Source: a bacterium | GTDB taxonomy: Bacteria; Electryoneota; Electryoneia; Electryoneales; Electryoneaceae | Reading direction: 5' to 3' | Length of the DNA: 64,000 nt | NCBI GenBank assembly: GCA_963669175.1 | Contig: OY769902.1 | Span: forward strand, 2,912,001-2,976,000 | Part shown: in pieces, positions 6,431 through 61,717 of the stretch | How positions within the stretch are numbered: the first letter of the stretch is position 1 | How the letters are laid out: every line of letters begins with the position of its first letter | Translations under genes and position numbers: made by a program | The notes under the pieces: generated by a model | What the model was told of the DNA's origin: nothing | What the model saw: the letters and a program-made list of their open reading frames with translations, nothing else | Databases searched by the model: none

Positions 6431-9400
6431 CTATTTTATCAGCACCATTCGCTTCAGGTCGGTGAATGGGCCTGCTTGCAGACGGTAGAAGTACATGCCG
6501 CTGGCCAGCCTGGTTGCATCAAAAGTAACGGCATGGAAACCGGCTTCCATACGATGATTGACCAGTTCCATGACTTCCTGCCCCATCACGTTGTAAACTG
6601 TCAGCCTGACATCCTGCGCTTTTACCAGGTCAAACTTGATCTGGGTCGCCGGATTGAACGGGTTCGGGAAGTTCTGGTGCAGCGCGTACTTTGTGGGCAG
6701 GTCAGACGTTTCTTCATCAGCTCCGTAGTAGAAGATGATGGCAACATCGACAACAGGCGGATTGGCCCAGTGTGGACCACCAAAAACCAGCTCTGCGTTG
6801 ATCTCATCACCGGGTTCCAAATCAACCGTATCACCCTTGGTTTGCAGATCAACCGTGATCGTCAGGGTGGTGGATTCACCCGGTTCAAGGAGGCCGGTAT
6901 TGGGCTCGACAAAGAGCCACTCAAGCGGCATGACCGGACCTTCCCAGATGTTGATGTAGTCTGGCTCACCCTGCAGCACACTGGTGATGTCGTAACGAGC
7001 ATGGTGGAACCCCGGGTTGATCTCGAAACCGGCGGAAGAACCGTACTCCGGCAGGTAGAGTTCATGCAGGTTCATTTCCCAGGCCATCTCATCCATGCTG
7101 AACCGGTGTATATAACCGCCTTCGCCATCTTCGTTCTGCGCTAAAGCGTAGATGGTATAGCCTTCGATGTCGAATGGGTTATACGCCAGTCCCAGGAGCC
7201 CGCCGATTCCTTCCGGCATGGGCAGCCCGGAAGAGGCGCCGGAATTAATGTCGTAAAGTGCAAATATCGACTCACCGTCTGACAGGAAAATGTAGCCGGA
7301 ATCATAGTCATAGGCCATTGCACGGCCATAGACGCCAACATTGCCAATCCACTGGTGTGTTGTCAGATCTCGCGAGAAGCGGAAAATGTCACCATCTTCG
7401 TTACAGCCGAACAGTTCTGTGGTTTCAGGGTCATAGGCCATATCCATAATGGCTGATGTGCTGTTGCCCAGCATATCATCAGGATAGGTTCGTGCGGCAA
7501 TCGGTGAACCGTCATGGCTGAACTGGTAGAGGAAATTATCGCCCACATCCTCTGACAGCGCCACGGCTGACACATAGATCCCGTCATCAAGGGTCACTGC
7601 GCCCATGATCCCATCATTCTCGGTTAATGATCCTGCATCGAAGGCAAGCAATGGATCAAACAGTTCATCCAGTTCGCCGCTGACCTGGACTTGCGGTCCA
7701 CGGTTCTGAGCTTTAATGCACAGGTTTGGCCCGGTAAAGGTCGTCCGTTTGGTCATCATCCTTCCGGTGCGTTGAACAACCGGGCTGGCATTCGTTATCC
7801 GTGGTTTACTGGTCTTTTTGTTCGCGTGGAATACAGCATTGTCAACAACCCAGAGATAGGCGCCATATTGCAATGGTCCTGATCCGTTGCTTTCAAGATC
7901 AATATCTGCGAAGCCCGTGGAATCACCTACCATACTATCAATGTCGACCAGAATCTCCAGCGATGTATTGGAGATTTCACCGTCGGGGAAGGACATGGGA
8001 TGGCCGGACTCGTTGGTGAAGTTCACGCTGAGGGTGTCGAACGGCAACAGGGTAACTTCGTAATCTTCATCCCAGTAGTAGATGTATTCGCAACGGATGG
8101 TATTGGTAACCAGTGTATCCGCTGGGATGTTGATCAGGCAATAATACCCGTTGGCGTCTGTATAGGTTTGCATTTCAGGATATTCCAGTACGGAGACCAG
8201 CGCTCCTTCCATGGGCTGATCTTCTGTATCAAACACAAACCCTTCGATCGCCCCACGTGAATCAGGCATGACACCCCAAATCTCCATATTGTCAATGGCA
8301 GCGCCATAATAACCATTGGCGCTTGTATCAGTGCCATGGCGGAATTTCAGGTGGATAGAATCTGCTTCCGCGTATTGCGTCAGATCGAATTCCACACGCT
8401 GCCATCCTCCAGAAGACTGGGTGAAACCTGGCGTGTTGTCCAGGCCTACAACGGTGGCATCGGGATAACCACCAATTGGTGCAATAATGGTCCAGGTGTC
8501 TCCATTGTCAGTCGATATCTGGACATTGTAGCCATCGTACCCGCTCTCATAGGCAATCCAGTGATAATATCCGAGCATGAGATTCTCGCTGATAGGCTCC
8601 CATCCATGGAGGCTTATCATCGAACCGTCATCACTATTCTGGTAATCCGATTCAAGGTAGGTAGCCCACACATAATCCCCTTCATAAGCTTCACCCGGGC
8701 CTGTTGTCGGTTCGCCACATTCCCAGATTGATTCAGGCTCGAAGGTGATATCTTCTTCGGGCACAGCATCCGGTTCAAACCCGCTGAAGAATGGGGGATT
8801 ACCTATCCTGGTGCTTACAGTAAGCACGGAGTCGGATTTATTCATCACTTCGTCAAAAGCAATGATGGCATAAGTATAGTAAGCCGGTTCTATAACACTT
8901 TCATCCCAGGTGGTGGTCTCTGCATCCAGAGTATCCAGAAAGGTAGTGCCACGATACAGAACATAGCCTGCGAGATCGACGCACGGTGAACCGTCAGCGT
9001 TTGTTGTTGGCGCATCCCAGGTAATCGTTGCTGTCTGCGTCAGGTGATCAATGTCAGTCACTTCAAAATCAGAAACACCGGAGGGCGCCATGTTAAATAC
9101 AGCAGTGACAGTCTGGCTTGGATTGGATTCAAATTCAACACCTTCGCTGTCAACCCAGGCTGTAGCGAAAATCATGATATCGCTGTTTTCCAGGTCAGAT
9201 CCAAGATCGAGGAAAAAAGCATCTACCTCAATAGGATCCTCGTTTGCCTGGGAATAGTTTTCGCCTCCATCTGTTGAATACCAGATGTAGTATCCAAGGA
9301 ATTCATCCAGCTCGTTGCGGTTAATGATTCCCTGGCTCCAACCTTGGCGAATTGGCGCTTTGGGGGTATTCAGCGCTGCAACATGACCGTAAAACGGCGA

Positions 9401-12400
9401 CTGATGCGTAGCTGCAACCGGACGCACATCAGAACGCGAGAAATCAGCATTCATACCTGGCGTGAAAGTGTAATCCTGATTTATCTGACCTTCAGAATAA
9501 ACACTTACACGGACCAGCGGATCACCGGTATTTTCAACATGTCGCCATGTATTGTCATCCGTGGAATAGTGGAGAAGCCCCTCATACGCGGCGTCTGCAT
9601 CAACACAGACAGCCTCCCGGCCGCCGCTCTGGGAAAGCCCGGCCCAGAACCTGCCTTCAACTGGTGTGGCTGGATTAACAAGGACCAGCCCATTTTCCGG
9701 TGTCACGATATTTTCGTACAGCAGCGATCCTGGCTGACCATTCTTGTCTGCAAAGATTTTTACTGTGACAGGGTCTGCCGTTGCATCCGGCCACGCGCCC
9801 CATACGCTTGACGGATCTGCTACCTGCCATTCAAGCTGGGCGACAATACCTTCCGAAGAGACCTCAAAGGGGACGGCCCAAGTGACATCTTCTCCTGCGG
9901 CGGGAAGGGTCCAGGCATCAGCCGCGATCCCATCATCGTACTGCATGGCCAGCATGTTGTCGTAGCTGCCGGGAACACCCAGAGCCAGGCCAACGCCATC
10001 ATCATAGTCCCCATCCCAACTGATCAATCTTGGGGCAGTGCGACAGCTAACAGGTGTAAGAACAAAATCGGTCTCTATCTCAAATTCACCTTCTTCCCAT
10101 TGGACATCTTCAACTGAACCTTGCTCGTAACCGTTGGCTTGGCAGAGCAGTGTGTAGGGAGCATTGGCCGTATTGGCCAGCAGGATTTCGTAGTAACCTT
10201 CTTCGTTACTGATGCCAAATGCAGCGGGATCTTCCTGGATGAATACATAAGCATCTGCAACGGGGTTGCCATCAATATCTTCAACCCATCCGATGACATT
10301 GCCATATTCTTCTACATAACGTAGCTGGTAGGTCGTTTCATTGGTAATATCAGCCATGGCGAAAGTCGTTCCGACAGTCCCATCCTGATTCTCAACGCCT
10401 GCGATAGCTCCTGCACGATTATAATAGACCCAGTCATCCGCTTCTTCGTAATTGAAGTAGATGACGTCCGTATCACAATCCAGTACAACCTCATAGCTGT
10501 ATCGGTAACCCGTATTGCCTGAATAGGGCCGTAACAGGAATTGGATAATGATCTGGTTTTCATCTTCGTCCACATAATACCAGATACCAACCCCATCGCC
10601 TGCTTCACCGCCATGGTAGTCGCCGTTTAACGGAACGATAGTTGCGTTTGGATTGCTGGTTGCAGGGAGCGTAACACCAATGTTATTGCTGGTGAAATCG
10701 ATAAAACTCATCCAGCCATTGGTACAGGCGGCAAAACTGGAATACTCGGTGCCGTAGAAATTGAATGACAACGGATCTACGCTGATTTCTCCCGAATTGG
10801 AATCATCACCTGCATCGATGGCAACAGAACCTTCGCCGCCATTATTCGGGTTGATCTCGATCCAGTCGTAATCAATCTCCGTCAGGATGTAACCGCCAGG
10901 GGGAAGGGGGCGTACATCAACCGGGTCCGAAAAGACAAGATAGTCTTCGCCGTAACCGTAGTCCGCAGCAACAGCTACCTGGTACAGATGACCGTTGTCC
11001 AGGCCTGGCAGGGTATAACTGTTCCCGGTTATCAGGAGATCAGCCTGGTATTCCCCATCAAGGCTGATGCGATAGCCGAGAATAGTTTCGATTTCGTCCA
11101 GCTCGTCGGGGTGGTCTGCGAGTGTCCTGTTTTCTTCTCTTTCAAGGAGGTTTTCCAGTGAATGCAAACGCTGTATAACTTCAGGCAGTTTTGCCAATTC
11201 CTGGGGAACAGCGCGCCGTTGAATATCTGCGATAGAAGCATAGTAGTTGTTGATCTCCTCTCGAAGCGCAAGGAGGTTTACTTCCTGGGGAGTGTTGCTG
11301 GGCGCTTCCCAGGAAAGTTCAGCCAAACCATTACCACCGGAAGCGTTAAAAGCCGAAGGAGGGTAGACTTCATGTAGTGTCCATTCTACTTCCAACCCCT
11401 CAACACCCAGATCTACCTCATAGAGATACCGGTCGTGGTATCCTTCCGAACCTGCTGGATCGTGGCTGATGTATACATTATAAAGTCCGACAATCTGTTC
11501 GCCCAGGTCAAACTCGCCGTTGACGTCGGTCGTTGTTGAAACGCCAATCTCATAGAGTGAAATGGTTGCGTCTGCGACAGGCGTGTTTGGGGTGTCGGCA
11601 GAGTACAATGTTCCGGAGAAGAAACCTGTAGTGGTTTCCACATCCATCTCAAAATCGATGACATAGGTGCTGTCTTCCACGACGATGACAGATTCTACCA
11701 TTTCAGGCGAATAGCCGGAACGCCATACAACGACATCGAATGTGTCCTCAACACCGAGAGTAAGCGAGTAATAGCCATTCGTGTCAGTAACTGCTTCATC
11801 GAACAGGATTTCCGTATCTTCATAATAAAGAAGCACATGCGCATCGTCGAGTGAATCACCATTAACGCTTTCTGTTACCGTTCCAGTAATATATGCATCC
11901 TGGAATGAATAGAATTTTATTGCCAATCCGCCATATGGGTAATTTGCAGGATCATTGTTAAAAGAGGCTGTCAACCCAATGCTGCCATCTTCATTCTCTA
12001 TGCCTACCGTTTCACTATCGAAAGAGCCAGCAACACCGGTATAGTCTTCATGATACTGCAAGATGATATTGCCGTTAGGATAGAGGATCGCCTCATATTT
12101 CTGGTCAACCTGGATTACAAAACGACCATCATCGAGTAATTCATAGTACATGTAAGTTGACCAGTCAACGATATGATCATCCCAGTTAATTGCAATCATA
12201 TTATCAGGCGCTATTCCATCAGGCAGTTCGCTGTTGGTCCATTCGACTTCTTCATTGTCGAAGGAGAACCAACCATGGGCGCAGAACCAGAACTGGTCAT
12301 ACTCAATACTATAGAATGAGAAGTCAAAATCAAGGTCGTAAGGCCCCTGAACAACATCAGCTTGCCAGCCATCAGTTTCAGTTCCTGTTTCACTGATGTC

Positions 12401-12706
12401 GATCCAGTCGTATTCAGGCCCGTTATCTTCCTGTGAATCAATAAATTCGTAACCGAATTCGTCCGGACCACCCATCTCATCAAGCTCGTTTCCTGAACCT
12501 CCAAGAATACTCGCTCCGCGCAGGAGTACCAGTTGCGCTTCTGTTAACGCTTCAATGCCTTCCGTTTCCAGAATGAGTGTTGCTTCATCCAGTTGACGGT
12601 AAAATTCCTGGCGTTCAGGGGACAGGCTGGCGGGATCAGTTGCAGCAAAAGCAACTGAAACACCAAGCAGAAGGGAAACAACCAGGATTAATCGGTGTAC
12701 TCTCAT
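6431..12706 (-). CDS. Large secreted multidomain surface protein with T9SS-type C-terminal sorting domain (carboxypeptidase-regulatory-like, FN3, beta-sandwich and propeller-like domains)
   Basis: Signal peptide, GGPDEFGY domain start, several 'G.I.G.V.D...P...A.V' repeats, FN3 motifs, C-terminal NFPNPFNPATQIKF...SGMYFYRL...KRMVLIK. RBS GGAGG. Confidence 0.85.
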   Translation of the reverse strand: MRVHRLILVVSLLLGVSVAFAATDPASLSPERQEFYRQLDEATLILETEGIEALTEAQLVLLRGASILGGSGNELDEMGGPDEFGYEFIDSQEDNGPEYDWIDISETGTETDGWQADVVQGPYDLDFDFSFYSIEYDQFWFCAHGWFSFDNEEVEWTNSELPDGIAPDNMIAINWDDHIVDWSTYMYYELLDDGRFVIQVDQKYEAILYPNGNIILQYHEDYTGVAGSFDSETVGIENEDGSIGLTASFNNDPANYPYGGLAIKFYSFQDAYITGTVTESVNGDSLDDAHVLLYYEDTEILFDEAVTDTNGYYSLTLGVEDTFDVVVWRSGYSPEMVESVIVVEDSTYVIDFEMDVETTTGFFSGTLYSADTPNTPVADATISLYEIGVSTTTDVNGEFDLGEQIVGLYNVYISHDPAGSEGYHDRYLYEVDLGVEGLEVEWTLHEVYPPSAFNASGGNGLAELSWEAPSNTPQEVNLLALREEINNYYASIADIQRRAVPQELAKLPEVIQRLHSLENLLEREENRTLADHPDELDEIETILGYRISLDGEYQADLLITGNSYTLPGLDNGHLYQVAVAADYGYGEDYLVFSDPVDVRPLPPGGYILTEIDYDWIEINPNNGGEGSVAIDAGDDSNSGEISVDPLSFNFYGTEYSSFAACTNGWMSFIDFTSNNIGVTLPATSNPNATIVPLNGDYHGGEAGDGVGIWYYVDEDENQIIIQFLLRPYSGNTGYRYSYEVVLDCDTDVIYFNYEEADDWVYYNRAGAIAGVENQDGTVGTTFAMADITNETTYQLRYVEEYGNVIGWVEDIDGNPVADAYVFIQEDPAAFGISNEEGYYEILLANTANAPYTLLCQANGYEQGSVEDVQWEEGEFEIETDFVLTPVSCRTAPRLISWDGDYDDGVGLALGVPGSYDNMLAMQYDDGIAADAWTLPAAGEDVTWAVPFEVSSEGIVAQLEWQVADPSSVWGAWPDATADPVTVKIFADKNGQPGSLLYENIVTPENGLVLVNPATPVEGRFWAGLSQSGGREAVCVDADAAYEGLLHYSTDDNTWRHVENTGDPLVRVSVYSEGQINQDYTFTPGMNADFSRSDVRPVAATHQSPFYGHVAALNTPKAPIRQGWSQGIINRNELDEFLGYYIWYSTDGGENYSQANEDPIEVDAFFLDLGSDLENSDIMIFATAWVDSEGVEFESNPSQTVTAVFNMAPSGVSDFEVTDIDHLTQTATITWDAPTTNADGSPCVDLAGYVLYRGTTFLDTLDAETTTWDESVIEPAYYTYAIIAFDEVMNKSDSVLTVSTRIGNPPFFSGFEPDAVPEEDITFEPESIWECGEPTTGPGEAYEGDYVWATYLESDYQNSDDGSMISLHGWEPISENLMLGYYHWIAYESGYDGYNVQISTDNGDTWTIIAPIGGYPDATVVGLDNTPGFTQSSGGWQRVEFDLTQYAEADSIHLKFRHGTDTSANGYYGAAIDNMEIWGVMPDSRGAIEGFVFDTEDQPMEGALVSVLEYPEMQTYTDANGYYCLINIPADTLVTNTIRCEYIYYWDEDYEVTLLPFDTLSVNFTNESGHPMSFPDGEISNTSLEILVDIDSMVGDSTGFADIDLESNGSGPLQYGAYLWVVDNAVFHANKKTSKPRITNASPVVQRTGRMMTKRTTFTGPNLCIKAQNRGPQVQVSGELDELFDPLLAFDAGSLTENDGIMGAVTLDDGIYVSAVALSEDVGDNFLYQFSHDGSPIAARTYPDDMLGNSTSAIMDMAYDPETTELFGCNEDGDIFRFSRDLTTHQWIGNVGVYGRAMAYDYDSGYIFLSDGESIFALYDINSGASSGLPMPEGIGGLLGLAYNPFDIEGYTIYALAQNEDGEGGYIHRFSMDEMAWEMNLHELYLPEYGSSAGFEINPGFHHARYDITSVLQGEPDYINIWEGPVMPLEWLFVEPNTGLLEPGESTTLTITVDLQTKGDTVDLEPGDEINAELVFGGPHWANPPVVDVAIIFYYGADEETSDLPTKYALHQNFPNPFNPATQIKFDLVKAQDVRLTVYNVMGQEVMELVNHRMEAGFHAVTFDATRLASGMYFYRLQAGPFTDLKRMVLIK

Positions 12707-12884
12707 CGCATGCCTCCACTTGCTGGTATCTGGAATTTCTTTTTAGCGCAAGACTGAGACGATTGCACTGGTGGCAGGCGCAAATTAGTGCAGGCAATCA
12801 AGTGGTAATATCTTAAACTGCATACTTTATAGGCATTGGTCAAGTCCTTTCTGCAAACCAAAATGTTTTTTTCTTGAAAAGGAG

Positions 12885-16748: not shown

Positions 16749-18524
16749 TTACTTGCTATACACAATCTTCTGAATCTGCTGATGTGCATTATTCAAGCGT
16801 GCGTCAATGAAGTAAATACCGGTCGCCAGGTCGGAGGCATCAAAACGGAAAGAGTATTCACCGGTTGAATAATGTCCTGCGCCAATAACAGCCACTCTTT
16901 CACCGAGGACATTATATAGATGAAGAGTAACATCTCCTGCTTCGGGTAAAGCTACGGTAATCGAAGTGGAAGAATTAAACGGATTCGGGTAGACTGAAGA
17001 CACCTCGAAATGATCCGGGATACGGCTGTCTTTTGTTTCCGGAGTTGCTGTCTCTTCCCAGACTACTACGGCTGGTGGCGAGGGGAAAGATTCTCCGTCG
17101 GGATACTGTGCTGTAACCGTGTAGCTGTAGGAACCATATTCCGTAAGCAAATTCACGACTGTTTCTGTTACAGCAATCGAAATCCATGTACCATCACGAT
17201 AAATCTTGTAGTATTCAAAACCACCTTCTTCCGGGGCTTGCCAGGTCAGGGTGACATTGCCTGTTTCCGGATCAACATTTCCGGCCAGCGCTGTCGGCGC
17301 GGCGAGGTCGGATGGATCCGCTTCCGGCATGAGATTGATTGTAGCGCATTCCACATTCGGATTGGGAAGCGGCCAGGAATCAAATGTATACCACTGGTTG
17401 GCGTAGCCGCCCCAGCCGTAATTCATGTACACCTGGTTGTAGCCGCCCACAACACGATACCCGGCGCAGGCAATTGCATGCTGGTCAATGCCGTACACCA
17501 TCGGACGTTCCTCATCCAGCTCAGCACAAAGAACAGCAAACCATGCGTCGGCGCCGTAATAGTCTCGACGTTCTGCCAGATCAGCAGACTCCACAAACCT
17601 GAAGTGCGCTGACATCGCCCCGGCCACATCCTGCATGAAAGCGCCGCTGCCTTCGTTGTCATAGTCCATCTCGACAGCCACACCAAGCTCATAATTGAGC
17701 TCGGCTATGGCGTCTATTTCAACTTGTGTCGGGCTGTTGCTGTAATAACCGTAAATATGGTCCCAATCATAGGGATCACTGAAGTCGGCGGACAATTCAT
17801 GCGCAGTAACACCGTCTTCCATCCAGGTATAGGTATGAGAACCTTCTCCCATCGGCGGCCATTGCCAGTAAAGGCAAACCATACCCATGGCTGTGGCGAC
17901 ACAACCAACCGGGCATCGTTCATAACCGTTGACAGGAACATAAGAGTTGTAAGGATATCCCTGGTGCCAGATAATCCCCTGCAACAGGTTCACCCCCGGA
18001 GTGTATTCGTCCAACTCGGAAACAGGCAGGCTGCTTCTGAAGTCCGAGTAGTTATCCCGGGTGTAGGCCTGCCAAAGGTTCGAAGCACGATCTACCTCAG
18101 ATTCCATCACGCCATTGGCCTGCCACTGCGCACGGTTTTCACCAAGTTCCTCAATCTGTTCCATCTTTTGGGCCAGCAGCTCAATCAGGATTTCGCCGGG
18201 CGAATCGGGGCCGTCAAAACTGAGAATGCCCTCATGCCAGGAAGCTTTCACCGGCGGCAGCAGGGAAGAGGCGGTGATAACAGCGTAGCCAGTGGGTGCG
18301 AACTCCATGTAATAGCCTACGATGTTGCCATTGTGCAACAGTGCTTCAGCGTTTTCAACAGCTTCCGGCTGTATGGTCCATTCACCCACCTCATGCATAT
18401 AGGTGGCATAATTCCATGCAACCGTATTCGCCTCTTCCATCGAAATGTCAACACTGGCAAAGACAAATGCAGGAATAACAAGCATTACCAGCAGGATGGC
18501 AGGCATTCTATGTAACCCGTTCAC
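16749..18524 (-). CDS. Peptidase C10 (streptopain-like cysteine protease) with propeptide, FN3 domain and T9SS-type CTD
   Basis: WHQGYPYN, catalytic PVGCVATAMG, HAIACAGY and MNYGWGG. N-terminal pro-domain; C-terminal YPNPFNSST...GIYFI. Confidence 0.9.
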   Translation of the reverse strand: MNGLHRMPAILLVMLVIPAFVFASVDISMEEANTVAWNYATYMHEVGEWTIQPEAVENAEALLHNGNIVGYYMEFAPTGYAVITASSLLPPVKASWHEGILSFDGPDSPGEILIELLAQKMEQIEELGENRAQWQANGVMESEVDRASNLWQAYTRDNYSDFRSSLPVSELDEYTPGVNLLQGIIWHQGYPYNSYVPVNGYERCPVGCVATAMGMVCLYWQWPPMGEGSHTYTWMEDGVTAHELSADFSDPYDWDHIYGYYSNSPTQVEIDAIAELNYELGVAVEMDYDNEGSGAFMQDVAGAMSAHFRFVESADLAERRDYYGADAWFAVLCAELDEERPMVYGIDQHAIACAGYRVVGGYNQVYMNYGWGGYANQWYTFDSWPLPNPNVECATINLMPEADPSDLAAPTALAGNVDPETGNVTLTWQAPEEGGFEYYKIYRDGTWISIAVTETVVNLLTEYGSYSYTVTAQYPDGESFPSPPAVVVWEETATPETKDSRIPDHFEVSSVYPNPFNSSTSITVALPEAGDVTLHLYNVLGERVAVIGAGHYSTGEYSFRFDASDLATGIYFIDARLNNAHQQIQKIVYSK

Positions 18525-51956: not shown

Positions 51957-51983
51957 AAACCCTGCTTGCACAGCAAGCAGGGG
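51957..51983 (-). terminator. Putative terminator of the 3221-aa gene
   Basis: CCCTGCTTGC-ACA-GCAAGCAGGG hairpin. Confidence 0.65.
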
Positions 51984-52051
51984 CAAATTTCAGGAGTATA
52001 TTGTTAATCCTTTTTCACCTTTTTCACTTTGTGTACTTTTTTCACTTCTTC

Positions 52052-55000
52052 CTACCTCACCAGGATCATCTTCTTCCGCACATTCATCTTTCCCGAAACC
52101 TGGGCATGGATGAAGTAGACACCACTTGGCAGTCCCTGGGCATTGAAGGAGAATTTGTGATACCCTTCCGGGTAACGTCCGTCGGCCAGCTCCTGCACCC
52201 GACGTCCCAGGACATCATAGATGCGTACCGTCAGTGTTGCTGAATGCGGCAGTGATACCACAACATTTGCTGTCGCGTTGAATGGGTTCGGATAGGTTCC
52301 CGGTACACCATAAGCTGTCGGCACGCCGCTCCAGGGATCCGGCACAGGGTTGTAATACAGGACGAAGAAGCCAAGCGTATCGGATGCCCAGGTTCCGTCC
52401 GTATTGCTGTCCGGGACAAAAACTGACCAGTAATACTGCCGGTAGGATTGCAGGCTGTCCGTACTGAACAGGGTATCGGTTAAGCCATCAGCAATACACC
52501 ACGCGGTTGAGAAATCAGGCAGTGTGTCGATCCAAACTTCATATCGCACGCTGTCATAGGGGTCAGGGTCAAACGAAGGCGCCCAGGAGAACTCCAGCTC
52601 ATCCAGACGGACCGAGTCCCCATCAGCAGGCGCATACAGGTCAAACGCGACCGGTGCATCCGGAATGTCTGTGATAAAGTGCCAGATACCGGAACCTGGG
52701 GGATTTGCAACCGTCATAAGTCCGAAATCATCTACCGCATATACTTTCCAGAAGATAGTTGAATCATCCGGTAGTGATCCGGTGCTGTTGTTCAGAACAG
52801 AATCCATCCCGGTTACGAGGTATTGCGTGTTGTTCGTATAGACAACAACGCTGTCCTGCAAGTCGGATGAGGTTGCCCAGATAACCTTGTAGCGAACGTG
52901 ATCACGAATATCGGAATCGATGGATTCTGTCCATTCCAGCAGGGCAAATGGCGTACGAATCGTATCGCCATTCGCCGGTGCGAGTTGCGCGAAGGGGCCG
53001 GGAGGATCAGGTTTCAGCGCCCAGAAACTGTAGGTCTGCTTGGACCAGGTGCCGGTGGTGTTGGTGTCCTGCGCACGAACTTTCCACCAGTACATCGTAG
53101 TATCCTGCAATTCATGGATGTCGATGTAAGGCGTAGCGACTGTAATGGAATCTATATGCCCGGCAAACGCTTCATCCTGGGCCAGGTAGACCACGTACTC
53201 AACAGTGTCATTTGAATCCGGATCAACCGCTTCTTCCCAATCCAGGCGCAGCCCAAGGGTGCTGGCCAGTGAACCATTGTCCGGGCTCAACAGGTTGAAT
53301 GCGGAAGGTGGACGTTCCAGTGAAACATAAAAACGATGAGTATGATTAGCCCAGGTGCCGCGTGAGTTGGTATCCTGCGCGCGCACCTTCCACCAGTAAT
53401 TCACATGGTTCAATAACCCTGTCATGTTATAATCCGGGGAATAGGCTATGGCTGAATCGAGACCATTGCTGAAATCTTCGTTCAGCGCCCAGTAGACCAC
53501 GTAATACACCGCATCACCGGGATCAGGATCTGCTGCTGCTTCCCAAAGCAGGTTCACACCCTCGTCATGGACGACATCACCATCTTCCGGTGACAGCAGC
53601 TCGAATTGTGCCGGCGGTTCGCCGATCTGGACGTTGAACGACCAGCCTTCTTCCTGGTTGCACAGGCGCTGGCTGTTGTAACGATCCTTCGCGTAGACGC
53701 GCCAGTAGATTGTTGTCCCATCCGGCAAATCATCAAGGTTGTCATCGTTGGTAGTCTTGTTGTCAGATGAGAAACTCGATGCGTTTGAACCTGATTCGAA
53801 CGTCTGACCGGTCGTGACCTGGTTCTCTGCCGCTTCGAATATGCCGACTCGATTCTGATTATTCTGTCGCCTTCCGGAAGTTGAAACAACGGTTGAACCG
53901 GATGACGAATATGTACTAATCGCAGATCCGGAATGTTTATTGGATCGTCCGGCGCGTGGTCCTCGTTGTGAAACCTTACCGAGTTCCTGCTCAGGATCAG
54001 GTGTCGAGTTCGTCAATTCATTGTTCGGCAACTCCGAGATCAGGAAAGTAGTGTCGCCGACTTCCTGGAAAGCGTTGTTCTCGAACTGGTTGTCCGTCGC
54101 CCATTCAACGATATAGGTTACATGATCGTTAGGATCGTTGTCCGTGGTGCTGTACCAGGAAACCCGGACCGTATCATCGTGGAAAATGGAGTTGTCATCC
54201 GGCCCGGCAAGGCTGAACGGATTCGGTGCGACCGGGATGAAGGTGTACAAACGGAATATGGTGTCTGACCACCTGCCCAGACCGTCGTTGTCCTCCGCGT
54301 AAACCTTCCAGAAACGGTTAGAACGATTGGGAAGGTTAGTCAACGCGATTGTCGTGTCCTGCGTTGTCAACGTATCCAGATTCTGACTGAACGCCTGATC
54401 GGATGCGGTGATTATGCTGTATGTGATCAACGCTTCAGGGTCGGGATCAAATGCGCTGGCCCAGACCAATGTTGTATCTCCGGTCCAGCAGGTGTCGCCA
54501 TCTGCCGGGCTGAGCAGGGTGAAAGTTTCCGGCGGCTCCGGCAGATACACAGTGAAAGACCACCCGGTGTCCGGATCGGCAAAGCGTTCAAGATCATAGA
54601 TGTCATGCGCACGCACCCGCCAGAAAATCGTGGAATCATCCGGCAGTTCATCGAGGCCGTTTCCGGCAAGTACTTCGGCCAGGTCCGTAATGGTATAGCT
54701 GGTGTCAGTTATCGAATCTGCGCTGAAGAAAGCACTGAATTCCGGATCAAGCGACCAGAACACTTCGTAGACAAAATCTTCATCAGCGTTGGGATCTGTG
54801 CTCGGTGTCCAATGTACCGTAACCGTATCGCTTTCAACTCTGCTGTCTGGCATGGGATCAGCCAGGGAGAAGGCGAAGGGACCGTCAGGAATAAATATCC
54901 GGACGGCAACAGTATCCGTGTATACATCGAAGCCGTGAGTGTCAAACGCGTGCACATTGATGTAGTACAGGGAATCATCCAGCAGGCCACGAATCATCAG

Positions 55001-58000
55001 GCTGGTATCTGCCAGGATCATGGCGCTGCATGGTTCGGCGAATTGACGGTCCGTATCCCAGAGGATCTCGTACAATACACTGTCGCCCGGGTCCGGTTCT
55101 ATTGAAGAAGTCCAGGTAACCAGCAGGGAATCTGTCCAGCAGGTGTCGCCATCGGCCGGGGAAACAAGTGAGAAACCGGTTGGCGGTTCGAAGATGTAGA
55201 CATCAAACTGCCACCCATTTACCGGGTTTGAACAGGTCGTTGCGCCGCTGACCGAAGTGGCAAACACACGCCAGTAAACAGAGATGTCATCCGGTAGCTC
55301 ATCGAGGTCTCCGTTGAAGACTACATCCTGCAAGTCCGAAATGGAGAAGGAGGTGTCTGCCGTGCTTCCGGTATAGGATACAGCGAACAACGGGTCTGTA
55401 GCCCATTCAACGGTGTATGTGACGGCGCCACCGTTCAGGGGATCGGAAGATGAATTCCAACGTACTAACACTGTATCGTTATGCGTCTGGGTTCCGTTGA
55501 CCGGTTGAGCCAGTCCAAACGGCAGCGGCGCATCCGGGTTTTCTACAGTGAATATAAACGTATCCGTAGACCATGTTCCCGGTGTGTTGCTGTCCTGGGC
55601 GCGAACTTTCCAGGAGTAGGTGGTGTTACTGATCAGGTCCGAAGCAGCATAGCTGGTGTCGGTTACGATTGTTGAGTCTACTGTCATGGTGAAAGTCGGA
55701 TCAAGCGCCCACCAGACCACATAGCCCAGTGTGTCACCGGGATCAATTTCGCCCGCTGATTCCCAAACAAATGTCGTGTCTGATCCGTGGACAGTAGATT
55801 CATCAGCAGGTGACAAAAGGTTAAACGCTACAGGCGGATCATAGAGGTAAACATTGAAACGATAGCCTGCAACCGGATCGCAGCGGGTTTGATAACCATC
55901 CGGATCTTCCGCCAGCACACGCCAGTACACCGGGGCATCATCGGGAAGTTCATCCAGATTTTCCCAGAACTGCGGATCGGAAAGGTCAGCTATGGTAAAG
56001 AAGGTATCCGTTGTTGTAGCGGAATAAGCGGTACTGTACAGGGCATCGGGTGACCATTGGACAGTGTAGGTTATATCGCCGCCCTGCGGATCAACTGACG
56101 GATTCCAGCGAACTGTCACTGTGTCGTTATGAACTTCTGCATCGTTTGCCGGAGACGCCAGCGCAAACAGTGAAGGGGCATTGGTGACATTGGTATGCAT
56201 CACCCAGGTTGCATCGGACCATGTGCCCGGGGAATTGCTGTCCTGGGCGCGTACCTTCCACCAATACGAAACGCCGCTGATAATATCAAAGGTATAGGTT
56301 GTGTCTTCACCGGTATTCGATGAATCCACATCCAGTGAGAAATTGCTGTCTGACGCCAGCCAGATACGGTAGGTGACATTGTCGCCTGGGTCGGTATCGT
56401 AGGTCGACTCCCAGGTCATGGTCTGGGCGCCGCTGGTGACAGTTGCTTCGTTCAATGGCGAAAGCAGGCTGAACGGTTCCGGCATGGACGGGAAGTTGGC
56501 CAGGAAATGGAAAACCTCCGTGGACCAGGTGCCGTTGGTGTTGTTGTCCCGGGCACGAACTTTCCAGTAATAGGTTGAATCATCCAGCAGACCGGAGATG
56601 TGATAACTGGTGTCCGCAGTGATCACGGAATCAAGCCCACTGGTAAACGTATTGTCAAATGCCCACCATACAACATAATCGACCGCGTCATCCGGATCTG
56701 GTTCTGCAGCCGTTTCCCATACCAGCGTAGTATCCCCGCCGAAGTATACCGTATCGCCATTGCCCGGACTCAGGAGGGAGAAGGGGGTTGGCGGGTCGGC
56801 GAAGTAGACGGTAAATGACCAGCCGTTGAAAGGCGTCGCGTTAGTGGTTAAACCAAGACGGTCTGTAGCGGTGACACGCCAGAAGACGGTTGAATCTTCC
56901 GGGATTTCATCCAACTGGTTTTGCAGGCCATTGATGGTGTAAGAAGTGTTTCGCGTGGTACCCGTGTACGATGTGGCGAAGGTAGGATCGGTAGACCATT
57001 CCACGGTATAGGTAATCGTATCACCGGGATCAGGATCAATACTCTGGGTCCAGGATACGGTAACACTATCATCCGCGACGTTGCTGCCATTGGCCGGACT
57101 TGCCAGTGAAAACGCGCTTGGAGCGCCGGGGATATGAACATGCAGGCGATTGACCTGGCTGGACCAGCGACCCGCTGTGTTGGTGTCGTTCGCCCGGACC
57201 TTCCAGTAATAATCGTTGTCATCATTCAGATTGTTGAGTGCCATGGCGGTTACAGGACCAACAGTTGCCATTGAATCAAGGTTCTGAGTAAATGCGGCAT
57301 TAGTGGCAATCCACACAACATAATTGACAATCGCATCACCGGGATCGAGGTCGGTTGCCGCTTCCCAGGTCAGGGTCGTATCGCCGCTGTAACAGGTATC
57401 GCCGTCGTCTGGTGACAACAGGCTGAACGGTTGCGGTGGAATCCAGAAACGGGTATAGAACGACCAGCCGGAATTTGGCGTGCATAGTGTTTCATTCCCA
57501 AGCCTGTCAATCGCCTTTATGCGCCAGTAAATATTCGTTGAATCGGGCAGGTTTGGGAGTGTATAGGTCAGGTTCCCGGTTATCGCAGAGTTGACCAGTC
57601 CCGAGAAATCGTTCTGTTCGGACCATTCGACTCGGTATCGCAGCACATCGCCCGGATCAGGATCGATGGCGGCGTTCCACGATACCAGTTGCGAATTATA
57701 ATGAACCGTATCCTGGTTCGCAGGGGCGGCCAGGGTGAAAGCGCCGGGCGATTCATGGATGTATACCGGGATTCGCCAGGTTTGTGTTGACCATGTACCC
57801 GTAGTATTGGTGTCCTGCGCACGAACCTTCCACCAGTAGGTATGGTCATCAAGCATACCGTTCAAAGCATATGTGGTCAGCGCTGTGGAAGCGGAATCGA
57901 GGTTCTGGGTGAAAGCCGCATCCGTTGCCCACCAGACCCGGTAGGTAATCGCATCACCGGGATCAGAATCGGTGGCGGCCTGCCAGGTCAGGGTCGTATC

Positions 58001-61000
58001 ACCGGTCCAGCAGGTGTCCATGTCAAACGGTGATGACAGGCTGAAAGCATTGGGCGGATCGGGGATCGCGGCAACGTAAAACGACCAACCGGAGGATGGG
58101 ATGCCATCGATGCTTGTTCCGAAACGGTCCGCAGCACGCACCCGCCAGTAGATCCGGGCATCATCAGGAAGCTCATCCAGCTCGTTGACAATATTCTGCA
58201 TGTCGGTGATCGTCAGGAAAGTGTCCGTAGTCGCGCCATGGTAATAGGTTGCGAAACCGGGATTCAACGACCAATTTACCGTATAGGTAATCACATCGCC
58301 GGGATCGGCATCGGCTGACGCTGTCCAATGAACTCTGACGGTGTCGTTATAGATAATTGCTTCATCTGCGGGAAGCGCAAGATTGAAAGCTGTCGGTCCA
58401 TCCGGGATATAGACATGGAAACGATTGGTTTGCGTTGACCAGGTGCCCGTGGTATACAAATCCTGCGCCCTGACTTTCCAGTACCAGGTAGAATTGTCCG
58501 GCCGGTTATTCAGAGGATGAGTTGTTCCGGCAACTGTGGCCGAGTCGAGATCCTGCGTAAACGCAGCATTACTAGCCCACCATACGACATAATGCACAAC
58601 ATCGTTCGGGTCGGTATCCACTGCCGCCTGCCAGGCCAGGGTTGTATCGCCATCCCAACAGGTATCGTTGTTGGTGGGGGACAGTAGGCTGAAGGCATTG
58701 GGCGCTGTCGGGATATAGACATGAAAAGAACGTGTATCCGTGGACCAGCGACCGGATGAATTGCTGTCCTGCGCCCGGACTTTCCAGAAATACGTAGTAT
58801 GATCATTCAAGTTGTTCAGATCATATGTAGTTTGTCCCGCCGCGACGGAAGCGGAATCAAGGTTCTGGGTAAAGGCCGCGTTGGTTGCCCACCAGATGAC
58901 ATAGTTCTGGATAGCGTCCCCGGGATCGGGGTCGCTTGTTGCCTGCCATGTGAGTGTCGTATCGCCGGTCCAGCAGGTGTCGCCCGTATCCGGTGACAAC
59001 AGGGTAAAGGGGGCAGGCGGTTGGGTGATATAAATGTCAAATGACCAACCGGCCGCTGGGGTTGCCCAGGTCTGTTCACCATAACGATCTGTTGCCAGGA
59101 CACGCCAGTATATGGTCGTGTCATCGGGTAATTCATCCAGCTCGTTGGAAACGATATTCTGAAAATCTGTTATTTCAAGCGAGGTTTCGGTAGTCGAACC
59201 GGTGTAGAAACTTGAGAAATCCGCATGACCGGACCATTGCACATGGTAGGTGACAAGATCATCCGGGTCGGGATCAATGGACGTTGTCCATTGAACTGTA
59301 ACCGTATCATCATTGATCACAGCGCCGTCAGCCGGTGAGGACAATGAAAACGGCCCCGGCGGTTCCGGCGAATAGACTTTGAGATGATTGACCTGGTTGG
59401 CCCAGGTGCCGTTGGTATTGCCGTCCTGCGCTCGCACACTCCAGTAATAGGTCTGATCATCGAGCATGTTGAGCAGTTCATAGGTGGTATCCGGGACGTT
59501 CACCGAAGCGCTGTCCAGATTCTGGCTGAAAGTCGCGTTAGTTGCCCACCAGATTACGTAACGCTGTACCGCATCTCCCGGATCGGGGTCTGTGGTTGTG
59601 CGCCAGACAAGGGTTGTATCCCCGGTCCAGCAGGTATCCGTGTTCAGTGGCGTAACAAGATCAAAGGCCAGGGGAGCGTCAAAGAGATACACATTGAAAG
59701 ACCAGCCCGCGACCGGTGTTGCCCAGGTTTCGTTTCCGAATCGGTCTATCGCCTTTACCCGCCAATAGATGGTCGTGTCATCCGGTAGCTCGTCCAGTTC
59801 ATCCAGTCCGCCCAGCAGCAGGTCGTGCAGGTCGGAAATGACGAAAAATGTATCTGAGGTCGATCCTGAATAGAAACTGGAGAAGTTGCTGTGCTGGGAC
59901 CAGTTGATATGGTAGGTAATGGGATCGCCAGGGTCAGGATCTATCGAACGTTCCCAGGAAACCGTAACCGTATCGTTATGCACATCGCTGGTATTGGCTG
60001 GAGCATCCAACGCGAAGGCGCCGGGTGCATCCGGGATATAAACATGGAAATATCGTGTCTGGGTTGACCAGGTTCCGGTAGTGTTGCCATCCTGCGCACG
60101 GACTTTCCAGTACCATGTGGAATTGTCAGCGAGATTGACAAGGTTTAATGACGTAGTTGGAACATTTACTGAAACAGAATCGAGATTCAGTGTAAATGCT
60201 GCGTCGGTAGCGTACCAGACCACATAACGCAAAACCTGGTCACCGGGATCAGGGTCCGTTGCCGCCTGCCATGTCAGGGTTGTATCCCCGGTCCAGCAGG
60301 TGTCGCCGTTGAGGGGGCTGGTCAGGTTAAACGGATTTGGCGGATCGGGATGGTACTCCGTATAAAATGTCCAGCCAGTGTCCGGTGTCGCCCATGTCTG
60401 GAAATTATAGTTATCCTGCGCATAAACACGCCAATAATAAAGCGCATTATCGGTCAATTCATCCAGGTCATTGCTGTTGTCAGAGATGTTGTAGGTGGTA
60501 TTGCTTGTTGAGCCGGTCCAGTGGGGTGTGAAGTTTTCATTCAAAGACCACTGCACGTAGTAAGTTACGTCATCATCCGGATCGGGGTCGCTAGAGGCTG
60601 TCCAACTCACGGTAACAGTATCTTCGCCGAGTATGGCGAAATTGGCTGGCGACTGCAAATCAAACGCAGTTGGCGGTTCATTAATAAAAACACGAAAGCG
60701 ATATGTAGATGTACTCCATCGTCCTTCAGAGTTTGTATCAATTGCTTTCACTTTCCAGTAGTAGGTCTGATCATCACTGAGTTCGGCAATGTTTACTGAA
60801 GTCGCCGGCGGATCGACATCGGCTGAATCCAGTCCCACGGTAAAGGCCGCATTCCTTGCCCAATAAACACGATAGAAAAGAGAATCACCCGGGTCAGGTT
60901 CTGTCGAGGATTGCCATGTCAATGTTGTGTTGTCTTGCCAGACTGTATCCGTATCTCCCGGACTCAACAGATCGAATACAGATGGAGGTTCCGGGATATA

Positions 61001-61717
61001 CACATGTATCTGCCAGGTTTCCTGGGACCAGGTCTGGCCATGTGGCTGACCGTCTGTGGCGAGGATTTTCCAATAGTAGGTCTGATCATCAAGCATTCCT
61101 GCGCGATTATGAGTCGTATCGCCGGTAATCGGGTTGGTCACATTCTGGGTAAAGAGTGGATCTGTGGCCATGTAAACGCGATAGTTTACATTCAATCCTT
61201 CATCAGGGTCGCTGGAGGATGACCAGGTCAGAGTTGTGTCACCGGTCCAGCAAGTGTCCCCGTTGGCCGGAGCAAGCAGGTGAAAATCTGTCGGTGGAGC
61301 ATTCAGGTCGATATAAAACCACCATCCCGCCTGGGGGGTAGCCCAGGTTTCATCATTTTCATTATCAACGGCCTTTACACGCCAATACACACGGGTGGAA
61401 TCGGGAAGCTCATCCAGCTCTTCCAGGTTGAAGCCCTGTACTATCTGGTCGGCAAGATCCGTGATGGCGTAATTGCTGTTAATGGTCGTTCCACTGTAAA
61501 AGCTTGAAAAATCGGCATGAGTTGACCATTGGACATGATACAATATTTGACCGCCATCGGGATCAACCGAAGCGCCCCACCACACATAAACGGTGTCATT
61601 CTGAACTGTAGTTTCGTTTACAGGTGAAATGAGGTTAAAAGCAACTGGTGGTTGCGCATAAGCGGAAAGGCTTACTATAACCAGAAATATAAAGACTGTT
61701 GAAAGTCGCTTCATCAT
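52052..61717 (-). CDS. Giant secreted protein with ~28 FN3-like repeats of two types and T9SS-type CTD
   Basis: Signal peptide; repeats begin P..F.L.SP and contain DPDPGD and YYW[KR]V.A.D; C-terminal TYPNPFNATA...SGVYFI...KKMILVR. Confidence 0.9.
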   Translation of the reverse strand: MMKRLSTVFIFLVIVSLSAYAQPPVAFNLISPVNETTVQNDTVYVWWGASVDPDGGQILYHVQWSTHADFSSFYSGTTINSNYAITDLADQIVQGFNLEELDELPDSTRVYWRVKAVDNENDETWATPQAGWWFYIDLNAPPTDFHLLAPANGDTCWTGDTTLTWSSSSDPDEGLNVNYRVYMATDPLFTQNVTNPITGDTTHNRAGMLDDQTYYWKILATDGQPHGQTWSQETWQIHVYIPEPPSVFDLLSPGDTDTVWQDNTTLTWQSSTEPDPGDSLFYRVYWARNAAFTVGLDSADVDPPATSVNIAELSDDQTYYWKVKAIDTNSEGRWSTSTYRFRVFINEPPTAFDLQSPANFAILGEDTVTVSWTASSDPDPDDDVTYYVQWSLNENFTPHWTGSTSNTTYNISDNSNDLDELTDNALYYWRVYAQDNYNFQTWATPDTGWTFYTEYHPDPPNPFNLTSPLNGDTCWTGDTTLTWQAATDPDPGDQVLRYVVWYATDAAFTLNLDSVSVNVPTTSLNLVNLADNSTWYWKVRAQDGNTTGTWSTQTRYFHVYIPDAPGAFALDAPANTSDVHNDTVTVSWERSIDPDPGDPITYHINWSQHSNFSSFYSGSTSDTFFVISDLHDLLLGGLDELDELPDDTTIYWRVKAIDRFGNETWATPVAGWSFNVYLFDAPLAFDLVTPLNTDTCWTGDTTLVWRTTTDPDPGDAVQRYVIWWATNATFSQNLDSASVNVPDTTYELLNMLDDQTYYWSVRAQDGNTNGTWANQVNHLKVYSPEPPGPFSLSSPADGAVINDDTVTVQWTTSIDPDPDDLVTYHVQWSGHADFSSFYTGSTTETSLEITDFQNIVSNELDELPDDTTIYWRVLATDRYGEQTWATPAAGWSFDIYITQPPAPFTLLSPDTGDTCWTGDTTLTWQATSDPDPGDAIQNYVIWWATNAAFTQNLDSASVAAGQTTYDLNNLNDHTTYFWKVRAQDSNSSGRWSTDTRSFHVYIPTAPNAFSLLSPTNNDTCWDGDTTLAWQAAVDTDPNDVVHYVVWWASNAAFTQDLDSATVAGTTHPLNNRPDNSTWYWKVRAQDLYTTGTWSTQTNRFHVYIPDGPTAFNLALPADEAIIYNDTVRVHWTASADADPGDVITYTVNWSLNPGFATYYHGATTDTFLTITDMQNIVNELDELPDDARIYWRVRAADRFGTSIDGIPSSGWSFYVAAIPDPPNAFSLSSPFDMDTCWTGDTTLTWQAATDSDPGDAITYRVWWATDAAFTQNLDSASTALTTYALNGMLDDHTYWWKVRAQDTNTTGTWSTQTWRIPVYIHESPGAFTLAAPANQDTVHYNSQLVSWNAAIDPDPGDVLRYRVEWSEQNDFSGLVNSAITGNLTYTLPNLPDSTNIYWRIKAIDRLGNETLCTPNSGWSFYTRFWIPPQPFSLLSPDDGDTCYSGDTTLTWEAATDLDPGDAIVNYVVWIATNAAFTQNLDSMATVGPVTAMALNNLNDDNDYYWKVRANDTNTAGRWSSQVNRLHVHIPGAPSAFSLASPANGSNVADDSVTVSWTQSIDPDPGDTITYTVEWSTDPTFATSYTGTTRNTSYTINGLQNQLDEIPEDSTVFWRVTATDRLGLTTNATPFNGWSFTVYFADPPTPFSLLSPGNGDTVYFGGDTTLVWETAAEPDPDDAVDYVVWWAFDNTFTSGLDSVITADTSYHISGLLDDSTYYWKVRARDNNTNGTWSTEVFHFLANFPSMPEPFSLLSPLNEATVTSGAQTMTWESTYDTDPGDNVTYRIWLASDSNFSLDVDSSNTGEDTTYTFDIISGVSYWWKVRAQDSNSPGTWSDATWVMHTNVTNAPSLFALASPANDAEVHNDTVTVRWNPSVDPQGGDITYTVQWSPDALYSTAYSATTTDTFFTIADLSDPQFWENLDELPDDAPVYWRVLAEDPDGYQTRCDPVAGYRFNVYLYDPPVAFNLLSPADESTVHGSDTTFVWESAGEIDPGDTLGYVVWWALDPTFTMTVDSTIVTDTSYAASDLISNTTYSWKVRAQDSNTPGTWSTDTFIFTVENPDAPLPFGLAQPVNGTQTHNDTVLVRWNSSSDPLNGGAVTYTVEWATDPLFAVSYTGSTADTSFSISDLQDVVFNGDLDELPDDISVYWRVFATSVSGATTCSNPVNGWQFDVYIFEPPTGFSLVSPADGDTCWTDSLLVTWTSSIEPDPGDSVLYEILWDTDRQFAEPCSAMILADTSLMIRGLLDDSLYYINVHAFDTHGFDVYTDTVAVRIFIPDGPFAFSLADPMPDSRVESDTVTVHWTPSTDPNADEDFVYEVFWSLDPEFSAFFSADSITDTSYTITDLAEVLAGNGLDELPDDSTIFWRVRAHDIYDLERFADPDTGWSFTVYLPEPPETFTLLSPADGDTCWTGDTTLVWASAFDPDPEALITYSIITASDQAFSQNLDTLTTQDTTIALTNLPNRSNRFWKVYAEDNDGLGRWSDTIFRLYTFIPVAPNPFSLAGPDDNSIFHDDTVRVSWYSTTDNDPNDHVTYIVEWATDNQFENNAFQEVGDTTFLISELPNNELTNSTPDPEQELGKVSQRGPRAGRSNKHSGSAISTYSSSGSTVVSTSGRRQNNQNRVGIFEAAENQVTTGQTFESGSNASSFSSDNKTTNDDNLDDLPDGTTIYWRVYAKDRYNSQRLCNQEEGWSFNVQIGEPPAQFELLSPEDGDVVHDEGVNLLWEAAADPDPGDAVYYVVYWALNEDFSNGLDSAIAYSPDYNMTGLLNHVNYWWKVRAQDTNSRGTWANHTHRFYVSLERPPSAFNLLSPDNGSLASTLGLRLDWEEAVDPDSNDTVEYVVYLAQDEAFAGHIDSITVATPYIDIHELQDTTMYWWKVRAQDTNTTGTWSKQTYSFWALKPDPPGPFAQLAPANGDTIRTPFALLEWTESIDSDIRDHVRYKVIWATSSDLQDSVVVYTNNTQYLVTGMDSVLNNSTGSLPDDSTIFWKVYAVDDFGLMTVANPPGSGIWHFITDIPDAPVAFDLYAPADGDSVRLDELEFSWAPSFDPDPYDSVRYEVWIDTLPDFSTAWCIADGLTDTLFSTDSLQSYRQYYWSVFVPDSNTDGTWASDTLGFFVLYYNPVPDPWSGVPTAYGVPGTYPNPFNATANVVVSLPHSATLTVRIYDVLGRRVQELADGRYPEGYHKFSFNAQGLPSGVYFIHAQVSGKMNVRKKMILVR

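Follow-up and report, generated by a model that had tools for sequence, protein, structure and literature searches.

The tetrapeptide Glu-Leu-Asp-Glu (ELDE) recurs in three secreted proteins encoded in a 64-kb stretch of the chromosome of a bacterium of the family Electryoneaceae (contig OY769902.1, positions 2,912,001 to 2,976,000; hereafter the window, in which positions 1 to 64,000 are counted), and across the genome of this organism it marks about a quarter of the cargo of its type IX secretion system (T9SS). We lean, if only slightly, towards reading ELDE as a shared proteolytic maturation site of this cargo, a view drawn from sequence and predicted structure, because the motif is confined to cargo, stands before many unrelated folds, is conserved beside upstream segments that drift, and in three enzyme families falls, by alignment, at the residue where characterised relatives are cut. 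All copies listed by the original prediction, which had been made from the letters of the window, are present where it placed them. The three proteins, here called P0001, P0002 and P0003, each end in matches to PF18962 and TIGR04183, that is, in a T9SS type A sorting domain (C-terminal domain, CTD), so their earlier assignment as T9SS-type cargo holds. Exact ELDE occurs far more often in them than their own compositions would give: four times against 0.095 expected in P0001, twice against 0.015 in P0002 and four times against 0.023 in P0003.

The same excess is found genome-wide. A crude set of 4268 open reading frames (ORFs) was called in the window's genome (first ATG, GTG or TTG start; greedy, longest first, non-overlapping), and the T9SS cargo was defined as 337 of these ORFs by a hidden Markov model iterated from the three window CTDs; in the same genome the Pfam model PF18962 gave at least 150 matches over its cut-off, among 340 candidates. 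The cargo proteins hold 158 copies of ELDE against 8.1 expected from the composition of each protein (8.4 in a per-protein shuffle null), a 19.6-fold excess spread over 86 of the 337 proteins, and the 3931 other ORFs hold 61 against 36.3 expected (1.7-fold). When the latter were divided by a crude hydrophobicity rule, the ratios were 1.5 for other signal-peptide-like proteins, 2.1 for membrane proteins and 1.65 for the rest. The distinction between CTD-bearing and other proteins that the original prediction had anticipated is therefore real (19.6-fold against 1.5- to 2.1-fold), and it belongs to the exact tetrapeptide. The degenerate form in which the motif had been defined, x-L-D-[E/D], did not survive the count: as the loose pattern.LD[ED] it reaches only 1.6 times its frequency in shuffled cargo. 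The order of the residues matters as well, since 10 of the 11 other orderings of E, L, D and E stand at 0.6- to 2.2-fold in the cargo. The eleventh, EDEL, is above expectation (36 observed, 4.5-fold); it is also produced by ELDE followed by Leu (LDEL, 94 observed) and by ELDELDE tandems, which may account for a share of the 36. When all tetrapeptides were ranked over the cargo proteins minus their last 90 residues, ELDE came first (86 proteins), followed by DELD (60), GDTL (60) and DPDG (55). The residue before it is D, N, G or S at 111 of the 158 sites and the residue after it L, F, Y or I at 98, and the consensus [D/N/G/S]-E-L-D-E-[L/F/Y/I] is a lineage-specific short linear motif. The first copy lies inside the first 100 residues in 36 of the 86 proteins, and single proteins carry up to about ten copies. 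Two proteins (G000:C1:1023382-1038915 and 5406689-5415358, G000 being the window's genome) have ELDELDELDE tandems with a three-residue period, and several others have shorter ELDELDE doublets, in both cases ahead of a folded strand; such (ELD)n-E tandems are uninformative on the scissile bond.

A count of this kind could be an artefact of paralogy, composition or DNA repeats, and some features of the data point that way. When sites were joined wherever their 60-residue upstream or downstream flanks match by BLASTP, the 158 sites fell into 39 contexts, with 40, 15, 15, 11, 9, 7, 7, 6, 5, 4, 4, 4, 3, 2 and 2 members and 24 singletons; 134 of the 158 copies lie inside the 15 multi-member clusters. 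The ten copies in P0003 are internal repeats that amount to one homologous position of a repeated fn3-like unit, so the figure of about 15 copies in the window with which the original prediction began is correct as a tally, but ten of them are not independent events. The codon pair CTG-GAT is somewhat over-used (0.43 against a background of 0.33), context-weighted codon-pair use at the sites being otherwise near background. Against an artefact stand the 39 independent contexts themselves, compared with about 8 occurrences expected in total, and the retention of the motif in C25-like paralogs that are just 37–57% identical. The 158 sites are encoded by 27 distinct DNA 12-mers, and 219 of the 241 genomic matches to the ELDE DNA pattern lie in frame in called ORFs; together with the near-background codon pairs, these figures indicate that the motif works at the protein level, as had been proposed at the outset, and a DNA-level repeat or recombination signal was rejected on the same grounds. 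An independent sample from another genus (G003, below) gave the same result. We regard the artefact explanation as close to refuted, and the claim that the motif is common to unrelated T9SS cargo as well founded (39 contexts, 86 of 337 proteins).

Within families the motif is held while its surroundings change. Whole-length homology to one GDT-type protein gave a family in which 21 members have complete N-termini and an identity of at least 35% (three truncated sequences were left out); 16 of them have ELDE, the other five reading ELNE (two), ELD[VM] (two) and QLEE (one). Mean column conservation in this family rises from 0.30 over the 30 columns upstream to 0.93 in the motif, and is 0.73 downstream of it. 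Ten more distant members have no ELDE; in five of these ten M/S/R-L-D or V-D stands at about the same place, as judged by eye without alignment (PPMLDTIG, SLDQPVG, RLDDPIG, PAVDTIG). The source labels of the GDT homologues read 'Calditrichota bacterium' or 'Candidatus Electryonea clarkiae'. The description of the latter candidate taxon reports a protein-degrading lifestyle and many exported S8 proteases (PMC9324843), and in its text the terms T9SS, type IX, gingipain, C25 and propeptide have no occurrences.

The position of the motif is best seen in proteins related to the gingipains. A Pfam scan on representatives of 20 ELDE loci placed ELDE between Propeptide_C25 and Peptidase_C25 at two loci (L002 and L016) and just after Propeptide_C25 at a third (L019), where only a fragment of C25 is left. 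One C25-like protein has Propeptide_C25 at residues 111–230, Peptidase_C25 at 282–594 and ELDE at 161 and 257. A phmmer search with this protein yielded 18 paralogs, 15 of which have ELDE at the junction (near residues 188–257); two of the remaining three read ELDD or NLDE there and one has no xLD[ED]. A further ELDE stands about 97–100 residues upstream of the junction in eight of the 18, with ELDD, GLDE or ALDE near there in four more, and a third near residues 1210–1300 in nine. An AlphaFold2 model of the pro-domain and catalytic part, built from a 30-sequence alignment (predicted local distance difference test, pLDDT, 89.3; predicted template modelling score, pTM, 0.89), was compared by Foldseek with 4IEF and matched the mature domain of RgpB with a template modelling (TM) score of 0.67 and the RgpB pro-domain with one of about 0.8. 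Residue 24 of mature RgpB aligns with residue 282 of the C25-like protein, and residue 1 of mature RgpB therefore extrapolates to residue 259, inside the ELDE at 257–260; this and the mature N-termini below are ungapped extrapolations, accurate to a few residues. The upstream ELDE aligned as 'sge.lde' to 'RAEnPDQ' of the RgpB pro-domain chain, one to three residues from the inhibitory-loop Arg, which by count of chain positions we read as Arg126. According to a review, the RgpB prodomain is 229 residues long with two autoprocessing sites, Arg126 and Arg229, and Arg126 lies on an inhibitory loop that enters the S1 pocket and is bound there by Asp163 (PMC4357240).

The C25-like proteins thus resemble gingipains in pro-domain and catalytic-domain architecture and fold, and in having two marked sites, which align with Arg126 and Arg229 and are separated by some 97–100 residues. 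They also have a third site farther along, between domains, as in the RgpA and Kgp polyproteins, and in both systems the mark is found on unrelated cargo of the same secretion system. The marks themselves differ: that of the gingipains is a single basic P1 residue and that of the present proteins an acidic four-residue motif, a predicted site only. In place of the Arg of the two autoprocessing sites, the C25-like proteins have ELDE or close variants at the aligned positions. In a 20-sequence alignment (the 18 phmmer paralogs and two further Pfam-identified members) Cys is kept in 17 and His occupies the column of the RgpB catalytic His in only one. Because the catalytic His is absent in 19 of the 20, we call these proteins C25-like rather than gingipains, and for the same reason it is doubtful that they process themselves as gingipains do; they may be pseudo-proteases or of a non-canonical catalytic type. 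Where the gingipain has G-His, most of the paralogs read R-G-[Y/F/W] (for example G000:C1 220765-225900 and 651071-681682). Lys occupies the column aligned to RgpB Asp163 in 10 of the 20, but the alignment is of low confidence there and the catalytic His is mostly absent from these proteins.

A second enzyme family is represented in the window itself. P0002 (16749..18524, minus strand) is a C10 cysteine peptidase of the streptopain/interpain type with an fn3 domain and a T9SS CTD (PF01640, E = 3e-44; PDB matches to interpain A and streptopain), in which Cys208 and His349, both invariant in alignment A1, form the predicted catalytic pair. ELDE at residues 170–173 (18006..18017, minus strand) stands at the junction of propeptide and catalytic part, the Pfam C10 domain beginning at residue 186. 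Residue 11 of the mature streptopain (SpeB) chains (253 residues) aligns with residue 182, so that residue 1 of mature SpeB falls at residue 172, inside the motif; mature interpain A starts about seven residues before that point. The three nearest homologues read QLDE, ELDD and QLDE here, followed by YTP, and farther homologues have no similar motif; among the 120 listed of 143 database matches the exact junction ELDE occurs only in P0002. Known C10 enzymes self-activate and prefer a hydrophobic residue at P2. P0002 resembles SpeB and interpain A in family and in the location of ELDE where the mature SpeB chain begins, and it differs from these self-activating enzymes in a junction motif that is confined to it among the listed homologues. 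The original prediction gave this peptidase a single copy; it was right about the junction but missed a second ELDE at residues 335–338 (17511..17522, minus strand), which lies in the catalytic domain and outside the junction motif. Since C10 enzymes from other phyla, PrtT-type proteins among them, have this ELDE-xRP stretch too, we take this copy to be a family-conserved helix unrelated to the junction motif and set it aside. It shows that some copies of ELDE are ordinary.

When mature subtilisin BPN' is aligned with an S8 subtilase, its residue 6 lies opposite residue 189 of the subtilase, which places BPN' residue 1 at residue 184, inside the ELDE at 183–186. Subtilisins cut their own propeptide by their own specificity. 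Here the motif overlaps the position of mature BPN' residue 1 in one S8 subfamily and is exact in three of 12 S8 paralogs, but it is also found on cysteine peptidases and on non-enzymes. In papain-like C1 proteins ELDE stands ahead of a PPVGNQ..C motif and probably marks the propeptide/catalytic junction; the PDB alignment stopped short of that region. The original prediction had placed the motif at the ends of propeptides and linkers, and in three peptidase families this location coincides, by homology, with maturation sites.

In non-enzymes ELDE directly precedes the GGPDxFGY of NIDO-like domains, the FLGYxxxYSTDG with which fn3 domains start, and a GDTxxVGxTYW domain. P0001 (6431..12706, minus strand; 2091 residues), which comprises a NIDO-like GGPD domain, CarboxypepD_reg domains, an InhA-like MAM domain, fn3 and the CTD, has four copies, all on the minus strand. 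The first (residues 74–77; 12476..12487) closes the N-terminal pro-region and has MGGPDEFGYEFIDS directly after it; close homologues read ELDE, ELDR or ELDD at this position and other lineages ILDQ, VLDS or LLGR. An fn3-like domain begins 0–4 residues after the second (residues 535–538; 11093..11104), the third (residues 1132–1135; 9302..9313) is followed by FLGYYIWYSTDG in a context common to seven paralogs, and the fourth (residues 1678–1681; 7664..7675) lies within a linker of the form RGPxxxxxx-ELDE-LFD that belongs to a context cluster of 15.

P0003 (52052..61717, minus strand; 3221 residues) is T9SS cargo built of alternating fn3-like units, ten of which ('type B') have xLD[ED] before LPDDxxIYWRV. 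The motif of the unit that we modelled is ELDE at residues 859–862 (59132..59143, minus strand); the other nine lie within 53729..61420 (minus strand) and read ELDE at residue 100, DLDE at 417, GLDE and ELDE at 637/640, ELDE at 1179, QLDE at 1601, NLDE at 1920, DLDE at 2137, GLDE at 2354 and NLDD at 2660, the last preceded by a low-complexity insertion of about 100 residues. Over the ten units this makes four ELDE (one with an overlapping GLDE in front), two DLDE, and one each of GLDE, QLDE, NLDE and NLDD. All 11 aligned units have LDE, which stands directly after a gap of variable length. In the AlphaFold2 model of the unit (pLDDT 88.4) ELDE occupies residues 77–80, in the loop between strand E (64–67) and strand F (85–94), where it ends the length-variable insertion between the two; residues 73–77, five residues ending with the first of the motif, have pLDDT below 50. 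The loose pattern.LD[ED] also catches unrelated structural L-x-D-D positions in the other type of fn3 unit. No curated NCBIfam models were found over the motif region.

Across the phylum the motif has a narrow range. At the C25-like junction, each of the 13 best hits from the window's family, one of them from the genome itself and 12 from relatives, keeps E-[L/I]-D-[E/D/Q/G], two further genomes of the family having given no match to the query. In other families of the phylum the junction reads [A/T/E]LD[D/G] in four of six sequences of one family (f6), LDLE in three of three of two others (f4 and f7), and a mixture of ELDI, LDL, LALD, LVLE and others without L-D in f5 (six) and f2 (four). Cargo was sampled in four relatives as the 150 best PF18962 matches, minus six with an open frame under 250 residues, keeping ORFs of at least 200 residues that match the CTD model. 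In G003, of the same family and another genus, 17 of the 61 CTD proteins sampled contain ELDE (20 copies, where 1.8 would be expected); it is again the tetrapeptide found in the most proteins, and stands at the same C1, S8, C25-like and GDT junctions. In cargo sampled from three further families of the phylum it is absent (0 of 52, 0 of 22 and 0 of 26 proteins, with 0.1 expected in each), and a generalised L-D junction motif is not enriched there either. Among the genomes sampled, ELDE is restricted to one family of the phylum. The ratio of ELDE to EDLE DNA patterns over whole genomes agrees only roughly, at 2.9 in the window's genome, 0.8–2.1 in 15 family members (median about 1.5) and 0.6–2.2, about 1.15, in 25 genomes outside the family; as a presence/absence profile for a protease in 40 relatives this ratio was too crude and was dropped. 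The window's genome and the four sampled relatives all have very large cargo sets (199–556 first-look CTD candidates). In other lineages the NIDO-like GGPD domain is preceded by PP-x-[I/L]-L-[D/G]-x-G before GPDxFGY (P0124–P0152), a recurrent stretch that hints at other lineage-specific junction motifs.

If ELDE is a maturation site, events might run as follows. In T9SS cargo the motif stands where a variable pro-region or linker gives way to the folded domain that follows. Once the cargo has been exported, a common endopeptidase would recognise the acidic tetrapeptide, remove the N-terminal propeptides, including those of C25-like, S8, C10 and C1 zymogens, and also cut or nick multidomain surface proteins at their domain junctions. 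Such a scheme would be analogous to that of Porphyromonas, in which the Arg/Lys-specific gingipains process their own precursors as well as further T9SS cargo. Cutting of the motif, at a particular bond and by a single enzyme, is the part of the scheme that we infer from where the motif lies.

A number of observations weigh against this scheme. Pro follows ELDE at eight of the 158 sites, which disfavours cleavage immediately behind the final Glu. The E-F loop of the fn3 units, with 40 of the 158 sites the largest context, is a place where a cut would nick the domain and release nothing. Exact placement of ELDE at the junction is limited to three of the 12 S8 paralogs, and six have no related motif nearby. 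Taken over all sites, the upstream flank is only slightly more disorder-prone than random positions (0.54 against 0.49), and the second C25-like site is ordered in the model (block pLDDT 83–86), at the end of a short helix and not in a floppy linker. The proposal that every copy closes a disordered segment is only weakly supported: the fn3 loop and the first C25-like site, with its dip to pLDDT 73, speak for it, and the confidently modelled second site and the small asymmetry of the flanks against it. An L-D core is present at homologous junctions of lineages that have no ELDE (ILDQ or VLDS before GGPD; MLDT, SLDQ and RLDD in the GDT family; the C25 junctions of f6, f4 and f7 given above), so part of the motif may be structural. 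Finally, searches of the window's genome, 95.9% complete, brought no maturase candidate from families C14, C11, C13, S1 or C25. Families C11 (PF03415) and C13 (PF01650) gave no match; C14 (PF00656) gave two ORFs with N-terminal hydrophobic segments and no CTD, carrying FGE-sulfatase-like or WD40-like parts as read from the sequence by eye; and peptidase family S1 (PF00089, PF13365) gave only two ORFs of 405–420 residues without CTD, which look HtrA-like from their length and a PDZ-like C-terminal sequence seen by eye. A secreted S1 peptidase other than these, such as a glutamyl endopeptidase of the S1B, V8 type, was not found in the genome. The C25 search gave 23 matches, mostly without the His (19 of 20 in the alignment above), and for the one C25 paralog with a His-Cys pair there was no PDB sequence match from which to read an S1 pocket. 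The best-scoring C25 match is a PorU-like protein with a CTD and no ELDE (G000:C1:1039270-1043157, plus strand), whose gene lies some 350 bp downstream of that for a 5177-residue fn3-repeat protein with 10 copies of ELDE (1023382-1038915, plus strand).

On account of these points two other explanations remain to be weighed against proteolytic maturation. The first is that ELDE is an uncut structural element of domain boundaries, an acidic N-terminal cap, a Ca2+-binding element or part of a first strand, to which Glu-rich cargo has converged from an older L-D core. The L-D core at homologous positions elsewhere and the ordered second site of the C25-like model fit this account, as do the continuity of the motif with the conserved downstream domain and its abutting, in the fn3 units, of a conserved acidic LPDD turn; Glu makes up 6–7.5% of the cargo in the window's family (G000, G003) against 2.5–3.5% in the three other sampled families (G020, G021, G024). 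A structural cap would, however, have to explain one exact tetrapeptide before at least 39 unrelated contexts and several folds (C25, S8, C10, C1, fn3, NIDO-like and others), with 10 of 11 other residue orderings unenriched and ELDE itself unenriched in cytoplasmic and other exported proteins that are comparably acidic. It also sits poorly with a first motif residue that belongs to the low-confidence stretch of the fn3 model, and with the coincidence with known cleavage sites in three enzyme families. We consider it unlikely.

In the second, ELDE is a motif that docks, or is recognised by, a factor without a protease function; this could be a chaperone in the periplasm or at the surface, a modifying enzyme, or part of the T9SS machinery for sorting or anchoring. 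Its strict restriction to T9SS cargo, its conservation as a linear motif beside variable flanks and the missing protease candidate would all be expected of such a motif. Its placement is another matter, for it follows zymogen maturation sites at no fixed distance from the signal peptide or the CTD, and one protein may have about ten copies. Moreover, with ELDE on only 86 of the 337 cargo proteins the motif is not needed for secretion itself, and modification of Glu, Leu or Asp within a motif of this kind is not known to us. A docking function seems to us somewhat less probable again than a structural cap.

Returning to maturation, the nature of the enzyme can be addressed only by way of leads. 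Caspases and granzyme B cut at Asp-directed tetrapeptides such as DEVD and IETD, which like ELDE are acidic four-residue motifs with Asp in third or fourth place; unlike in those systems, the genome searched here yielded no secreted caspase-like enzyme, neither C14 gene having a T9SS CTD. The caspase-fold protease that the original prediction put forward accordingly finds no support, no C11 or C13 gene having been found and the column of the catalytic His lacking His in 19 of 20 C25-like proteins. The S2 pocket of families C10 and C1 prefers hydrophobic residues, and Leu at P2 would for that reason suit these enzymes if the cut fell after Asp, which is a lead only. As a tentative extension, one that we would not bet on at even stakes, the family may have evolved a site-specific 'ELDE-ase' that activates the zymogens of four peptidase families and trims or nicks surface adhesins, acting on a quarter or more of the T9SS secretome. 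Taken furthest, the idea is that this enzyme may be a non-canonical C25-like protein, an 'acid gingipain' with reversed S1 charge, having an aromatic residue at the His position after Arg and Lys in place of Asp163.

Our literature search found no published description of the ELDE motif or of ELDE in type IX secretion, and no relevant N-terminomics work on T9SS. Maturation of a secretome at a lineage-specific site has a precedent in the gingipains; what would be new is the specificity, that is, the predicted site. Should ELDE prove to be such a site, the mature N-termini and domain products of some 86 secreted proteins here could be predicted by a simple rule from the sequence, as could those of many further proteins in uncultured relatives that degrade protein. 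This would also mean that the logic by which one specificity matures a whole T9SS secretome, as with the Arg/Lys gingipains of one oral pathogen, arose a second time, with the charge reversed, in a distant lineage of the environment, and it would point to a protease with a long and unusual recognition site, of interest to enzymologists and as a tool.

The window is otherwise an ordinary chromosomal stretch. It has four genes with a T9SS CTD, three with ELDE and a fourth with none, together with two dnaE-type genes, lexA, a gene of the EPSP-synthase family (PF00275), nadA, trkAH and sensor kinases. A gene for a DDE-superfamily transposase (PF13546; 47683-49017, minus strand) lies between the trk genes and that of P0003. 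The two DNA polymerase III alpha-type genes (1069 and 1146 residues) and lexA fall within 36 kb of one another on the plus strand (297-3506, 28138-31578 and 35687-36412), and the shorter polymerase gene, which scores lower on every shared Pfam domain, may be an error-prone copy of the DnaE2 type.

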